The position numbers were made by a program, and so were the translations under genes. The notes beneath the pieces are model-generated. The model made no database searches, had not been told where the DNA came from, and saw only the letters and a list, made by a program, of their open reading frames with translations. A stretch of DNA of 44,742 nt from Actinomycetes bacterium (GTDB taxonomy: Bacteria > Actinomycetota > Actinomycetes > Actinomycetales > Microbacteriaceae), in the NCBI GenBank assembly GCA_023457615.1, contig JAEWKY010000268.1:1-44742 (forward strand), read 5' to 3'. Positions 20,429-25,608 of the stretch are shown one piece after another. Numbering within the stretch: position 1 is the first letter of the stretch; the number at the start of each line of letters is the position of its first letter.

Positions 20429-21301
20429 ATGCCGAAGTTCACCGCGACGCGCGACGATCGCACCTTCGTCGACGCCGAGGGCGTCACGATCCACTACTAC
20501 GCGTGGCAGGTGGGCAAGCCGAAGGGCGTCGTGCAGATCGTGCACGGCGTCGGCGAGTACGCGACGCGCTACGAGCACGTCGCGCAGGCGCTCGTCGACG
20601 CCGGCTACTCGGTCTACGCGGAGGACCACCGCGGGCACGGGCGCACGGGCGTGCAGCAGTGGGACGGCGACCTCGCCCAGCTCGGCCGGCTCGGGCCCGG
20701 CGGCGTGCGCGCGACGATCGCCGGCATCCGGAAGCTCGCCGGCATCGTCCGCGACGAGAATCCCGGGCTCCCGCTCGTGCTGCTCGGGCAGAGCCTCGGC
20801 TCGATCTTCGGCCAGATGATGCTCAACGACGACTCGACGCTCTACGACGCCGCGGTGCTCGCGGCCCCGGCATATCGCACCCTGCGTCACATGAACGGCG
20901 GAGATCTCGCGAAGCGGCACCGCACGCCCGGCGGTCCGGGCACCGAGTGGCTGAGCCGCGATCCCGACGTCTGGACCCGGTTCGCCGACGACCCGCTCAC
21001 GTTCGACGCGAAGGTGCTCAAGCTGTTCGGGCTGCGCGACACCCTGCGGCTGCTCGGACGTCCGCGCAGGATCGCCCACGACCTGCCGCTGCTGCTCATC
21101 CTCGGCACGGAGGACACCCTCGGCGGGCCGCGCAGCGTCGAGCTGCTCGCGGCCGCCTACCGCACGCGCGGCGGCCTCACCGACGTGACCGTGCAGAGCT
21201 ACGAGGGCGGTCGCCACGAGATGTTCCACGAGACCAACCGCGACGAGGTGCTCGCCGACCTCGTCGCCTGGCTCGACGCGAAGGTGCCTACCGCAGGATG
21301 A
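20429..21301 (+). CDS. alpha/beta hydrolase (lysophospholipase/Hydrolase_4-like)
   Basis: HGVGEY, DHRGHG, nucleophile GQSLG, GTED, RHEMFHE. Confidence 0.9.
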   Translation: MPKFTATRDDRTFVDAEGVTIHYYAWQVGKPKGVVQIVHGVGEYATRYEHVAQALVDAGYSVYAEDHRGHGRTGVQQWDGDLAQLGRLGPGGVRATIAGIRKLAGIVRDENPGLPLVLLGQSLGSIFGQMMLNDDSTLYDAAVLAAPAYRTLRHMNGGDLAKRHRTPGGPGTEWLSRDPDVWTRFADDPLTFDAKVLKLFGLRDTLRLLGRPRRIAHDLPLLLILGTEDTLGGPRSVELLAAAYRTRGGLTDVTVQSYEGGRHEMFHETNRDEVLADLVAWLDAKVPTAG

Positions 21302-23408
21302 CGAGGCGCTGCGTCGCACGCGTCATCGCGACGTACTGATCCACCGCGCCGAACTGCTCCGGGCGCACGAGCACGACGAGATCGAACTCGAGTCCCTTCG
21401 CGGTCGCCGGATCGAGCGACGACACCCGCGGCCGCGGCGCGAAGCCCGGGTCGCCGATCACGCACGCCACCCCGTCGTCGTGCGTCGACATCCACTCCTC
21501 GAGCAGCGCGTCGAGCTCGTCGACGCCGCCGTGGTGCACCGGGATGCCGGAGCTGCGGATCGAGGTCGGCACGTTCGCGTCGGGGAGGGCCGCGAGGATG
21601 ACCGGCGCCGCCTCGGCCATGACCTCCTCGGGCGTGCGGTAGTTGATCGTGAGGGCCGACTGCTCGACGTCGTCGAGGCCGATCCGCGCGAGCCGCTCGC
21701 GCCACGTCTCCGGGAAGCCCCGTCGGGCCTGCGCGCGGTCGCCGACGATCGTGAAGCTAAGGGACGGGCAGCGGCGCAGCAGCATCGCCCACTCCGCATC
21801 GGTGAGCTCCTGCGCCTCGTCGACGACGACGTGCGCGAAGGGTCCCGCGAGCGGGTCCCGGTCGAGGGTCGAGAGGCCCGCCTCGTCGATGAGGGAGTGC
21901 TGCGCGTCCTCGCCGCGCAGCATCGTCGAGAGCAGCAGCTCGCTGTCGTCGCCCGCGATGAGGTCGTCGACGACACGCTCCATCGTCGCCCGCCGGTGCG
22001 CGAGCTCGGCCTGGCGGCGCCGGGCGATGCGGGCGGCCTCGGGGTCGCCGATGCGCAGCCGCGCGGCGTCGAGCAGCGGGAGATCGGCGTCGGTCCAGGC
22101 CCGCGCCTCCTCGCGCGTGAGCGTCGCGATCTCCTCGGACGTGAGGTCGGGCGCGCACGCGCGCAGGTAGCCCGGCACGCCGAGCAGGTCGGCGGCGACC
22201 CCCACGGGATCGAGCAGCGGCCAGGACCGGTGGAAGGCCCGGCGCAGGTCGCCCGCCCGCAGGAGGGGCTCGAGCTCGTCGACATCCACCTCTCCCCCGG
22301 CGTCGGCGAGGCGGGTCGCGACGATCTCGACGAGCTCGCGCCACACCTCCTCGCGCGCCTCGTTGTGCGACGACGACGGATCGGCGATCCCGAACGCGTC
22401 GGCCCAGTCGTCGGCGGTGAGCCGCACGGGTCCCCACTCCGAGCCGAACACCGTCGCCGACTCCGGCGGCCGCTCGTACCGGCGCACCGCGGCGTCGAGC
22501 GCTCTCTCGAGCACGCCGCTCTCCTTGAGCCGCCGCGTCGCGGGGTCGGACTCGACGGCCGCCGTGGCGCCCTCGGGCACGAGGTCGCGCAGCGTGCAGG
22601 TGCGCACCCCGTCCTCCCCGAGGCTCGGCAGCACGTCGGCGACGTAGTCGAGGTAGGCGGGGCTCGGACCGACGACGAGCACGCCGCCGCGGCGCCGTCC
22701 GACGCGCGGGTCGGAGTAGAGCAGGTAGGCGGCGCGGTGCAGCGCGACGACCGTCTTGCCCGTGCCGGGACCGCCGTCGATCACGCGGGCGCCCGCCGAC
22801 CCGGCGCGGATGATCGCATCCTGGTCGGCCTGGATGGTGCCGAGCACGTCGCGCATCCGTGACGACCGGCCCGCGCCGAGGCTCGCGAGGAACGCCGACT
22901 GGTCGTCGAGCGCGGCGCGGTTCGTCAGGCCGTCCTCGGTGAAGACCTCGTCCCAGTAGTCGGTGACGCGTCCGCCGGTCCAGCGGTAGCGGCGGCGGCT
23001 CGCGAGACCCATCGGCTGCGCGTGGGTCGCGCCGAAGAACGGTTCGGCGGCGGGGGCGCGCCAGTCGATGAGCAGCTGATCTCCGGACGCGTCGGAGAGC
23101 CCGAGCCGTCCGATGTAGAGGGTCGCGCCGTCGGCGGCCACCATCCTGCCGAGCGTGAGGTCGACCCCGTAGCGGCGCAGCATCCCGAGCCGGGCGGTGA
23201 CGCGGTGGATCTCCTGGTCGCGGTCGCTGCGCTCCTGCCCCTCGCCGTCGCCGTCGTCGAGCAGCAGCGTCTCGTCGCGGCGCGCCTCGAGATCGGCGAT
23301 CGCGCGCGCGAGGGTCTCGGCGATGCGCGTGAAATGCCGCTCGTCGGCATCGATGAGCGCCGGATCGCGCTTCGCGGCGAGGCGCTCGGACAGGTCGAAG
23401 AGTGGCAC
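21288..23408 (-). CDS. helR: RNA polymerase recycling motor ATPase HelR (HelD family, rifamycin resistance)
   Basis: LLIDWRAPAAEPFFGAT, RRRYRW, DYWDEVF, LDDQSAF, TIQADQD, Walker A GGPGTGKT, VVDEAQE, KGLEFD, YVAMTRAT. RAE directly upstream. GTG at 23408 chosen as start. Confidence 0.92.
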   Translation of the reverse strand: MPLFDLSERLAAKRDPALIDADERHFTRIAETLARAIADLEARRDETLLLDDGDGEGQERSDRDQEIHRVTARLGMLRRYGVDLTLGRMVAADGATLYIGRLGLSDASGDQLLIDWRAPAAEPFFGATHAQPMGLASRRRYRWTGGRVTDYWDEVFTEDGLTNRAALDDQSAFLASLGAGRSSRMRDVLGTIQADQDAIIRAGSAGARVIDGGPGTGKTVVALHRAAYLLYSDPRVGRRRGGVLVVGPSPAYLDYVADVLPSLGEDGVRTCTLRDLVPEGATAAVESDPATRRLKESGVLERALDAAVRRYERPPESATVFGSEWGPVRLTADDWADAFGIADPSSSHNEAREEVWRELVEIVATRLADAGGEVDVDELEPLLRAGDLRRAFHRSWPLLDPVGVAADLLGVPGYLRACAPDLTSEEIATLTREEARAWTDADLPLLDAARLRIGDPEAARIARRRQAELAHRRATMERVVDDLIAGDDSELLLSTMLRGEDAQHSLIDEAGLSTLDRDPLAGPFAHVVVDEAQELTDAEWAMLLRRCPSLSFTIVGDRAQARRGFPETWRERLARIGLDDVEQSALTINYRTPEEVMAEAAPVILAALPDANVPTSIRSSGIPVHHGGVDELDALLEEWMSTHDDGVACVIGDPGFAPRPRVSSLDPATAKGLEFDLVVLVRPEQFGAVDQYVAMTRATQRLVILR

Positions 23409-23433
23409 GAGGGTCGATCCTGCCCCATCCCCG

Positions 23434-23452
23434 GGGCCTTGCGGCAAGCCGG
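23434..23452. promoter_or_regulatory. rifamycin-associated element (RAE)
   Basis: GGGCCTTGCGGCAAGCCGG: 19-bp imperfect inverted repeat with CTTGC-G-GCAAG core, 25 bp upstream of helR. Confidence 0.88.
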
Positions 23453-23475
23453 GGGTCGGCGCATACTCTTAGATG

Positions 23476-23503
23476 GAGGGAGCGGAATCCGCCCCTCTTT
23501 TTT
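23476..23503 (+). terminator. intrinsic terminator/attenuator between the RAE and lplA
   Basis: GAGGG-A-GCGG-AAT-CCGC-CCCTC followed by T6 (23498-23503). T-runs of this length are rare in this window. Confidence 0.75.
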
Positions 23504-23525
23504 GATGCCCGCGAGGTGAGTCAGC

Positions 23526-24575
23526 ATGCACGGAGAGTTCAAGGTCCCGGGCGGCAAGCTCGTCGTCGTCGACCTCGACGTGCGCGACGGCCGGCTCGCC
23601 GACGTGCGGCTCTCGGGCGACTTCTTCCTCGAGCCCGACGACGCCCTGCCGCTCATCGACGCGGCCCTCACCGGGCTCCCCGTCGCCTCCGACGCGGCGA
23701 CGATCGCCGCCGCCGTCACCGCGACGCTCCCCGAGGGCGCCGTGCTGCTCGGCTTCTCGGCGGAGGCCGTCGCGACCGCCGTGCGCCGGGCGCTCCAGCA
23801 CGCCACGTCGTGGAGCGACTACGCGTGGGAGCTCGTGCGTCCGGGGCCGCTCGAGCCGCTGATGCACCTCGCGCTCGACCAGGTGCTCGCCGAAGAGGTC
23901 GGCGAGGGCCGCCGCGCCCCCACGCTGCGCTTCTGGGAGTGGGCCTCGCCCGCCGTCGTCATCGGATCGTTCCAGTCGGTGAAGAACGAGGTGGATGCCG
24001 ACAACGCCGCGCGCTACGGCTTCCCCGTCGTGCGCCGCATCTCCGGCGGCGGAGCCATGTTCATCGAGCCGCCCGGCGCGGTGACGTATTCGATCTACGC
24101 CCCGGCCGACCTCGTGCAGGGGATGACCTTCGCCGACTCGTACGCCTTCCTCGACGAGTGGGCCGTGCAGGCCCTGCAGAGCCTCGGCATCGACGCCGCC
24201 TACGTGCCGCTCAACGACATCGCGTCGCCGACCGGCAAGATCGGCGGCGCGGCGCAGAAGCGTCTCGGCAACGGCGGGGTGCTGCACCACGTCACGATGG
24301 CGTACGACATGGACGGCGCGCGCATGGCCGAGGTGCTGCGCATCGGGCGCGAGAAGCTCAGCGACAAGGGCACGAAGTCGGCCGCGAAGCGCGTCGACCC
24401 GCTGCGCTCGCAGACCGGGCTCGCACGCGACGAGATCATCGAGCGGATGATCGCGACCTTCCGCGCGGCGCACGGCCTCGCCGACGGCGCCCTCACGGAC
24501 TTCGAGATCGCGCGGGCGCACGAGCTCGTCGCGTCGAAGTTCGGCACCGACGAGTGGCTCCACCGGGTGCCCTGA
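23526..24575 (+). CDS. lplA: lipoate-protein ligase A, circularly permuted actinobacterial type
   Basis: N-terminal accessory domain MHGEFKVPGGKLV..GDFF, then catalytic VVRRISGGGAM, ND, KIGGAAQ. SD GAGGTG. Confidence 0.9.
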   Translation: MHGEFKVPGGKLVVVDLDVRDGRLADVRLSGDFFLEPDDALPLIDAALTGLPVASDAATIAAAVTATLPEGAVLLGFSAEAVATAVRRALQHATSWSDYAWELVRPGPLEPLMHLALDQVLAEEVGEGRRAPTLRFWEWASPAVVIGSFQSVKNEVDADNAARYGFPVVRRISGGGAMFIEPPGAVTYSIYAPADLVQGMTFADSYAFLDEWAVQALQSLGIDAAYVPLNDIASPTGKIGGAAQKRLGNGGVLHHVTMAYDMDGARMAEVLRIGREKLSDKGTKSAAKRVDPLRSQTGLARDEIIERMIATFRAAHGLADGALTDFEIARAHELVASKFGTDEWLHRVP

Positions 24576-24579
24576 CACC

Positions 24580-25608
24580 GTGCGCAAGCTGATCGTCGGC
24601 CTCGCCCTGGCCGCACTCCTCGTGGCGGGCATGCTGCTGTCGGCGCTGCTCGGCCAGCTCCCCGTGTCCCCGTCGGAGGTCGTCGGCTCGCTGCTGCGGG
24701 CGATCTGGATCCCGAACCCGTGGGCGCCCGACGACACCGTGGTCGAGTCGTCGCTGTGGGTCGTGCGGTTCCCGCGCATCGTCATGGCGCTCGTCGTCGG
24801 CGCCGCCCTCGCCACCGCGGGGGCGGTCATGCAGGCGATCTTCGGCAACCCGCTCGCCGAGCCCGGCGTCGTCGGCGTCTCGTCGGGCGCGGCGCTCGGC
24901 GCGGCGATCGCGATCTCGCTCGGGCTCACGGCCCTCGGCGACTACGGCATCGCGGTGCTCGCGTTCCTCGGCGGACTCGGCGCGACGCTGCTCGTGTACG
25001 TCGTCTCCCGCGCGAACGGCCGCACCGAGGTCGTCACCCTCCTCCTCACCGGCATCGCCGTCAACGCCTTCGCCGGCGCCGGCCTCGCCTTCGTGCTCTT
25101 CTCGACGAGCACCGCGAACCGCGAGCAGATCGTCTTCTGGCAGCTCGGGTCGCTCAACGGCTCCCTGTGGCGGGAGGTGGGCATCGTCGCGGCGGTCGCC
25201 GTCGCGGGGGTGATCGTCGCCGTCGTGCTCGGTCCGCGCTACGACCTCCTCGCCCTCGGGGAGCGGAACGCCCGCCACCTCGGCCTCGACGTCGAGCGCC
25301 TCCGCCTCGTGTCGATCGTCGTCGTCGCGCTCCTCACCGGCGTCGCGGTCGCGTTCGTCGGCATCATCGCGTTCGTCGGACTCGTCGTGCCGCACGTCGT
25401 GCGCATGCTCCTCGGCCCGCGGCACCGGTCGCTCATCGTCTTCTCGGCCTTCGGCGGCGCCGTGCTCATGCTCGCCGCCGACCTCCTCGCGCGCACGATC
25501 GTCGCCGGGGCGGAGCTCCCGATCGGGATGCTCACCTCCCTCGTCGGCGGACCGTTCTTCTTCTTCCTGCTCTGGCGCCAGCGTCGCCGGTCCGGAGGCT
25601 GGGCATGA
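24580..25608 (+). CDS. hmuU: FecCD-family heme/iron ABC permease (HmuU-like)
   Basis: RFPRIV, MQAIFGNPLAEPG, GERNARHLG, IAFVGLVVPH, DLLART, GGPFF. Confidence 0.85.
   Translation: MRKLIVGLALAALLVAGMLLSALLGQLPVSPSEVVGSLLRAIWIPNPWAPDDTVVESSLWVVRFPRIVMALVVGAALATAGAVMQAIFGNPLAEPGVVGVSSGAALGAAIAISLGLTALGDYGIAVLAFLGGLGATLLVYVVSRANGRTEVVTLLLTGIAVNAFAGAGLAFVLFSTSTANREQIVFWQLGSLNGSLWREVGIVAAVAVAGVIVAVVLGPRYDLLALGERNARHLGLDVERLRLVSIVVVALLTGVAVAFVGIIAFVGLVVPHVVRMLLGPRHRSLIVFSAFGGAVLMLAADLLARTIVAGAELPIGMLTSLVGGPFFFFLLWRQRRRSGGWA

Follow-up and report, generated by a model that had tools for sequence, protein, structure and literature searches.

An outward-facing promoter with a short hairpin RNA is predicted beside the RAE of helR and conserved at other rifamycin resistance loci

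Bidirectional promoters can arise from sequence symmetry, in which case the two promoters share a -10 region and their starts lie about 18 bp apart. The RAE, which was reportedly defined in a 2014 paper by Spanogiannopoulos et al., controls inducible resistance (arr, helR, rox, rph, and rgt) that makes rifamycins useless against several actinobacteria. According to the accessible part of the preprint by Surette et al. (10.1101/2021.05.10.443488), the RAE is needed for rifamycin induction and the response is 15- to 50-fold, with the mechanism stated to be unknown; the same is still said of RAE sensing in the available portions of texts from 2021 and 2022. In the accessible sections of a review (PMC10719064), the RAE of M. 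smegmatis overlaps the -35 region of the mapped, gene-proximal helD promoter P2, and both promoters of that gene point toward helD, the P1 start being placed some 20 bp upstream of this element; those sections do not mention a divergent start. Rifamycins are described, in the portions of the literature available, as leaving polymerase at the promoter making products of 2 to 3 nt. In the accessible part of Zhu et al. 2018 (PMC6181997), the mycobacterial rpoB promoters respond unequally to low rifampicin: one is preferentially shut down, which relieves another, and this needs a drug-sensitive polymerase.

We analyzed a site within a 44,742-nucleotide stretch of DNA, referred to here as the window, from an actinobacterial draft genome of 2.9 Mb (72% G+C, 351 contigs). 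The divergent genes helR and lplAB are separated there by a gap of 117 bp. The features of the site were as follows.

21288..23408, minus strand: helR, encoding an RNA-polymerase-protecting ATPase, with its likely GTG start at 23408
23417..23422, minus strand: -10-like element CAGGAT of the helR-facing promoter, ending 8 nt from the GTG
23434..23452, no strand: RAE, a 19-bp palindrome with its dyad at 23443, which houses both overlapping -35-like hexamers
23438-23448, no strand: RAE core CTTGCGGCAAG, 11 nt, dyad at 23443
23439-23444, plus strand: -35-like hexamer TTGCGG of the outward arm, inside the palindrome
23447-23442, minus strand: -35-like hexamer TTGCCG of the helR arm, inside the palindrome
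23464..23469, plus strand: -10 element TACTCT of the outward (mirror) promoter
23475..23476, plus strand: outward transcription start (G at 23476), as predicted from sequence
23476..23497, plus strand: putative RNA hairpin beginning at the predicted first base, 9 pairs with one bulge
23498..23503, plus strand: T6 tract, which forms with the hairpin an intrinsic-terminator-like signal
23513..23528, plus strand: Shine-Dalgarno-like GAGGTGA and the lplAB ATG, the latter at 23526, 22 nt past the T tract
23526..25608, plus strand: lplAB, followed by the first gene for a FecCD-type permease, both downstream of the outward arm

The palindrome core and its position before the HelR gene are the same as those of the RAE in the accessible text of Surette et al. 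The published RAE is described, in the same partly available sources, as a 19-bp cis element, to which an outward -10, a G start, a co-varying hairpin, and a weak gene-side -10 are added here. The RAE and helR are already known, while the outward promoter and the hairpin are not described in the literature examined: no such description was found in the accessible text of the review (PMC10719064), of the 2021 preprints, or of full-text literature, a search that did not cover the defining 2014 paper, and the available part of a 2024 HelD preprint contains no RAE passage. The locus resembles the helD gene of M. smegmatis, as far as the review (PMC10719064) is accessible, in having the RAE at the -35 region and in the idea of induction through two promoters. 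However, the second promoter here faces away, with a predicted start 24 bp from the RAE edge, near the place of P1 but on the other strand, and we considered whether the P1 of the review could be the outward start read on the wrong strand. The mycobacterial rpoB-rpoC promoters I and II (accessible part of PMC6181997), where polymerase inhibition is the signal, offer a precedent for sensing by polymerase itself, via two promoters that differ in rifampicin sensitivity. Those promoters follow one another on the same strand and work by way of transcription across the interval that separates them, with an induction of 1.6-fold, whereas the RAE arms stand back to back, share a -35 region, and belong to a response of 15- to 50-fold. 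The tandem two-promoter arrangement of the rpoB type was not found at this site: the arms diverge here, and each predicted start has the RAE on its upstream side. As in bidirectional promoters born of symmetry, one symmetric sequence is common to two opposed promoters, but here it is the -35 region that is shared, about 67 bp separate the starts, and the arms are kept unequal.

All of the coordinates that a sequence-only reading of this DNA had given for the two -35-like hexamers, the two -10 elements, the hairpin, and the T6 tract were exact, and both -10 elements begin 21 bp from the dyad after 19-nt spacers, as it had noted. The RAE is defined as a 19-bp palindrome with the core CTTGCSGCAAG between G and C runs; the copy in the window agrees with the consensus of 58 loci (among the matches listed) at 17 of 19 positions, and both mismatches fall in the outer run on the outward side. 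It stands directly upstream of the resistance gene, with the dyad 35 bp before the HelR-gene GTG, and among the 15 matches to the 11-nt core found in its own genome with up to one mismatch, it is the only exact one. The -35-like hexamers overlap by 2 bp on opposite strands around the dyad and match TTGACA at only 3 to 4 of 6 positions. The outward arm shows the TANNNT -10 and the purine start 7 nt downstream that mark a housekeeping sigma-type promoter (TACTCT, G at 23476), but it lacks a TTGACA-like -35 at 16 to 18 nt, since TTGCGG matches at 3/6 and the spacer is 19 nt. The plus-strand -10 had been called the better consensus match, which held for the T at -12, the A at -11, and the T at -7 (3/3 versus 2/3) but not overall, both elements matching TATAAT at 3/6. 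A strict consensus scan for promoters and terminators returned 0 sites and called neither. The promoter was missed because the rules allow only 16- to 18-nt spacers, and we infer that the terminator was missed because the scan needs an unbulged stem; a GC-rich hairpin directly followed by a U tract, as defines an intrinsic terminator, is present in the window. An Rfam scan of 22400-24600 at E values up to 10 gave no match in 23417-23530 and four weak matches elsewhere, below the gathering scores.

The observation holds to the base, and chance is an unlikely source of it. In the 44.7-kb window, TANNNT was counted 36 times over the two strands, or about 4e-4 per position, and the T6 at 23498-23503 was the sole T or A run of at least 5. 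The whole 2.9-Mb genome held 7 T6/A6 runs and 3 instances of TTGCSG-N19-TANNNT. The fold of the 36-nt predicted RNA had an energy of -15.5 kcal/mol (z = -2.9 versus shuffles), and that of 61 nt at the hairpin had -21.6 kcal/mol (z = -1.6). Canonical T tracts are nearly absent genome-wide, with the one run in the window among the seven T6/A6 runs in 2.9 Mb, and most transcription ends in this genome must therefore use other signals.

The helR product scored 1094 bits against NCBIfam NF041254 motor_HelR (cutoff, 750), with residues 4-706 on model positions 1-706, and this full-length score above the curated cutoff identifies it as HelR (class II HelD). It also matched PDB 6yxu_H, a chain named HelD, at an E value of 1.8e-94. 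Because CAGGAT ends 8 nt before the GTG, the helR mRNA would be leaderless or nearly so; the GTG and the preceding 8 nt are the same in the relatives L002 and L003. On the other side of the gap, lplAB scored 584.7 bits against NCBIfam LplAB (cutoff, 550). In 18/20 relatives (L002-L021), lplA has its own TAGGCT -10, mostly 6 to 7 nt before the start in a leaderless arrangement, while in seven loci of the same genus a longer leader with a Shine-Dalgarno sequence follows the TAGGCT. The lplAB gene of the window is without TAGGCT; its ATG, preceded by a Shine-Dalgarno sequence, comes 22 nt past the T6, and by inspection we found no further TANNNT on the plus strand between 23200 and the lplAB ATG. 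Here lplAB and the permease genes have probably come to rely on the outward arm as their sole promoter, and the hairpin plus T6 would work as an attenuator. The hairpin had been proposed to insulate or attenuate lplA-hmuUV, and a dependence of lplAB and permease read-through on the outward arm is indeed probable, given the loss of TAGGCT and the lack of any other TANNNT upstream.

To compare RAE loci, we collected places with an intact 11-nt core. These were 9 actinobacterial records from an exact 15-mer scan of all genomes (among the matches listed) and 67 places, among the matches listed from 401 genomes of the class, allowing up to one mismatch, with a further 276 matches outside the sample. 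The sample leans to the families listed first; 5 places near contig ends were dropped, and with L001-L003 the total came to 79 loci. Among the matches listed, 60 loci stand before known classes (34 helR-like, 16 rox-like, 6 rgt-like, and 4 rph-like). They span at least 9 coded families as well as Streptomyces, Nocardia, Arthrobacter, Actinomadura, and Paeniglutamicibacter, but one family (f55) supplies about half of the 60, and kin are not independent. The 60 loci were picked by core and gene and not by the -10 feature that was counted. The other 19 loci (among the matches listed) were 13 chance core matches without any module feature and 6 that carry the whole module.

On the side away from the gene, TANNNT started exactly 21 bp from the dyad in 60/60 helR-, rox-, rgt-, and rph-like loci among the matches listed, and at outward offsets of 8 to 59 only 2 other TANNNT were found in these 60 loci, again among the matches listed. 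The check proposed in the sequence-only reading, a mirror -10 conserved at other RAE loci, was thus borne out at all 60 (among the matches listed). The gene side looked different at the same offset, with CANNNT in 53/60, GANNNT in 4, and TANNNT in 3 of the matches listed. At the expected start, seven bases on from the outward hexamer and 33 bp from the dyad, G stood in 59/60 (among the matches listed), and the center base favored the outward -35-like hexamer (TTGCCG) in 42/60 of the matches listed, leaving the window in the minority. The outer GGGG and CCCC of the RAE were nearly invariant across loci. The outward consensus was GCAAGCCCCCCGGTGCGC-TATAC.TT-GAAAGT-G-GAAGGGAGT, the gene-side consensus was GCAAGaCCCgggtcgtGCCG-CAgAAT-CgccggcCGag, and the module consensus extended from about -45 to +37. 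Comparison shows two opposed predicted promoters of identical geometry, each with its -10 at 21 bp from the dyad and its -35-like hexamer within the palindrome. It also shows that the putative outward arm is maintained as a strong one, by its TANNNT, its G start, and its A/G-rich discriminator, and that the putative helR arm is kept weak by a C at -12 and a GC-rich discriminator. The anatomy of a symmetric two-way promoter on the RAE, with a very short hairpin RNA predicted from the outward arm, is strongly supported by these alignments. Open reading frames reading away from the core were clustered and the representatives scanned against Pfam; on the outward side of the clustered RAE loci (among the matches listed), they formed no recurrent family. 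The direction of the outward neighbor, called by two crude ORF/GC3 rules, was 29 towards and 23 away under one and 27/27 under the other, and both rules mis-call the window itself, for which reason these counts were set aside.

The predicted outward RNA was, in most loci, structured from its first or second base. Among the matches listed, the minimum-energy fold of its first 36 nt began at +1 in 41/58 loci and at +1 or +2 in 46/58. The mean z score of the folds was -1.46 versus -0.19 in a control region lying 60 nt farther outward (Mann-Whitney test, p of about 9e-6, a value overstated by kinship), and the 5' arm paired with its own downstream sequence at -12.9 kcal/mol versus -10.1 kcal/mol with that of other loci (0/10,000 permutations). 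The hairpin arms were not alignable by MAFFT alone, and we turned to a covariance model built on three seeds. This recovered 38/74 loci at E up to 1, with 90% of the cells pairing in the alignment, and 8/11 pairs were changed on both sides across loci. There were 53 double-changed cells versus 18.6 ± 3.9 in shuffles (0/500) and at most 12 in slid controls, a result that the structure-fitted alignment favors. The helix began at the invariant G, and a pair outside the helix was without support. A T-rich tail (at least 4 T in 8 nt) followed in 18/58 loci and TTTT in 9/58, both among the matches listed. The terminated transcript of about 30 nt that had been predicted thus stands for the window, where the T6 gives a predicted length of 24 to 28 nt, and for about a third of the loci, but it is not universal, with 40/58 lacking a T-rich tail. 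The general feature of the predicted outward RNA is the hairpin at its very 5' end. Between the tiny RNA and the 5' region of its own gene we found no excess pairing (-24.24 within versus -24.32 between loci; 5,674/10,000 permutations were as good). With no locus-specific pairing, and with helR here almost without a leader to target, the variant in which the short RNA itself represses helR gained no support.

We searched 41 related genomes and found helR adjoining lplA in three same-genus genomes. In L002 and L003, the RAE was accompanied by an identical GCATACTCTT at the same 19-nt distance although the spacers differ, and the hairpin was kept with different, compensating stem letters. The T tract after it was T5 in L003 and absent in L002. 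In L009, the helR-side -10 (CAGACT) was kept while the RAE, the outward -10, and the hairpin were all absent; thus, the three parts come and go as one unit. In L003, a short repeated unit ending ...ccggtgtatcgagacc was inserted in two copies in the approximately 150 bp between hairpin and lplA; one copy of the same unit was also present in L009, and it looks like a small dispersed repeat.

The module also was found outside the actinobacteria. Both -10 elements stood at the right offsets in 18 of 120 exact 15-mer matches from any phylum and not in the remaining 102 (among the matches listed), so that most matches were chance hits that lie outside any module, the two-sided -10 signature serving here as a detection rule and not as a test. 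At least 7 non-actinobacterial modules were detected (Myxococcota, 2; Acidobacteriota, 2; Chloroflexota, 2; Gemmatimonadota, 1), 6 of these seven before rox-like genes and 1 before an rph-like gene; the loci are L076, L121, L095, L109, L101, L145, and L147. These come mostly from metagenome bins, in which mis-binning is possible. They point to cross-phylum transfer of gene and control region together. One actinobacterial copy of the module precedes arr.

We tentatively favor, as a reading that is quite possible though short of probable, that a conserved two-way promoter module, asymmetric and about 85 bp long, is centered on the RAE, that the stretch forms its outward half, and that the outward arm would act as a decoy. 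The outward arm would transcribe an RNA that is little more than the hairpin, and in the window the T6 should end it after about 25 nt. Judging from how sigma region 4 holds a -35 element, one polymerase at a time would occupy the RAE; the overlapping hexamers cannot both be held, and the arms would therefore compete. Such competition agrees with the published overlap of the RAE and the -35 region of helD P2, with the 2- to 3-nt products that rifamycins leave, and with the unequal rpoB promoters. The strong outward arm would take most of the polymerase and keep helR low; a repressing decoy unit (or its RNA), relieved once drug-bound polymerase tips the balance, had been put forward in the sequence-only reading. 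Plain competition or occlusion should, however, predict the wrong sign, since polymerase stalled by rifamycin on the strong arm ought to cover the RAE that both arms share and so reduce helR expression. The weakest step of the proposal is that a small drug-bound share of polymerase would disproportionately disable a fast-cycling promoter, because one stalled enzyme costs it many firing cycles. Decoy output would collapse first, and this change would let the helR arm fire; the signal could be the clearing of stalled enzyme, the loss of the short RNA, or an RAE-binding protein. A bolder claim, which we regard as unlikely, is that RNA polymerase itself is the rifamycin receptor and that the RAE module is a self-contained sensor without a dedicated protein factor, reading the drug-stalled share through a fast-cycling decoy promoter whose hairpin RNA is disposable. 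The spread to 7 non-actinobacterial loci and to arr would fit a part that needs no lineage-specific factor. If this claim is true, it would explain travel with five unrelated resistance-gene classes across at least 5 phyla, and polymerase as the sensor would be a compact example of target-based antibiotic sensing. In any case, an outward promoter kept at every copy examined (among the matches listed) is a testable lead on drug sensing, and an invariant outward promoter and hairpin at a fixed distance narrow a vague hunt for a regulator to a small set of clean experiments. The comparison also suggests a functional element of about 85 bp and not 19 bp, which bears on reporter design, on resistome prediction, and on the reading of earlier half-RAE deletions.

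The main competitor to the decoy is a candidate dimeric DNA-binding protein that would recognize the RAE and be the real rifamycin switch, with the flanking -10 elements as its bidirectional targets and the outward unit as an auxiliary that, e.g., fixes which way the protein directs polymerase. We consider this somewhat unlikely. It would account for the conservation of the whole 19-bp palindrome, including the outer G/C runs, beyond what two -35 hexamers need, and the rigid 21-bp spacing on both sides would also suit an activator-to-(-10) distance; moreover, a common regulator is expected in the accessible text of the review (PMC10719064) and of an M. abscessus preprint. However, no such protein is named in the available parts of the RAE literature examined, the module acts as a unit before five gene classes, and the protein would also have to exist in four further phyla. 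In M. abscessus, arr and helR are named by a transposon screen of 2026 that addressed rifamycin resistance, and its main text, as available, names no regulator and does not contain the word, although an essential gene or a repressor would escape such a screen. It is considerably less probable that the outward promoter merely follows from the symmetry of the element, as a by-product, and that the hairpin, with the T tract where present, only insulates neighbors from divergent firing. The hairpin and T6 directly before lplAB here, the terminator-like tails in 18/58 loci (among the matches listed), and the outward side without a recurrent gene family all agree with that idea, but a by-product should decay, and what we observed was TANNNT in 60/60, a G start in 59/60, and a gene-side hexamer kept weaker, all among the matches listed. 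In addition, losing a -10 is simpler than adding a terminator, and 40/58 of the matches listed have no T-rich tail to insulate with.

Two further explanations concern the RNA and the local gene. The tiny hairpin RNA might be a short-lived regulator that acts in trans, masking the ribosome-binding region of RAE-controlled mRNAs or binding polymerase, so that its loss under rifamycin would derepress the genes. Its structure is conserved, and its 5' arm (GGAAGGGAGU-like) resembles the ribosome-binding region in the conserved leader of many RAE genes, so its 3' arm is complementary to that region. Against this, the complementary arm is locked in the stem of the RNA itself, there is no locus-specific pairing signal, and helR is without a leader in the window, L002, and L003, where the hairpin is kept all the same, which leaves this role more improbable still. 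The least credible of the explanations is that the outward arm in the window is merely the lplAB promoter with a structured 5' leader, unrelated to rifamycin. It is true that lplAB starts 22 nt past the T tract without the TAGGCT -10 found in 18/20 relatives and that no other TANNNT was seen in the 300 nt upstream, but the same arm stands at 60/60 RAE loci (among the matches listed), lplA lies outward only in three loci of the window's genus, and in L002 and L003 the arm exists alongside a TAGGCT that belongs to lplA itself. An arm conserved only beside lplA is contradicted by the RAE loci with other neighbors. Co-option of the arm for lplAB in the window is likely, and it leaves the existence of the arm unexplained.

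Several loci showed additional features. In L157, from the family of the window, no hairpin was predicted at the outward start (fold z, +1.16), and a gene for an NADPH-dependent FMN reductase is oriented away from the RAE; at some loci, the outward promoter thus could serve as a real mRNA promoter. On the gene side, a leader of about 45 nt, from about +27 to +75 from the dyad and including the first bases past the ATG, was conserved at many RAE loci across helR, rox, rgt, and rph genes. As seen in L047, L169, L198, L070, and L179, it contains a small hairpin (CTGGCC..GGCCAG) followed by AACCTGCGGAAAtGGGAGTCaCGaaATGCG, and it is absent in the window's genus. This leader may encode a short upstream reading frame or form another functional part of the module. 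Complete modules also stood before short ORFs or genes outside the five known classes, in L213 (an ABC ATPase), L104, L159, L171, L215, and L207, the last of which looks degenerate (TACGTC and CGGAAC). The ABC transporter ATPase of L213 is a candidate for a further rifamycin-linked gene.
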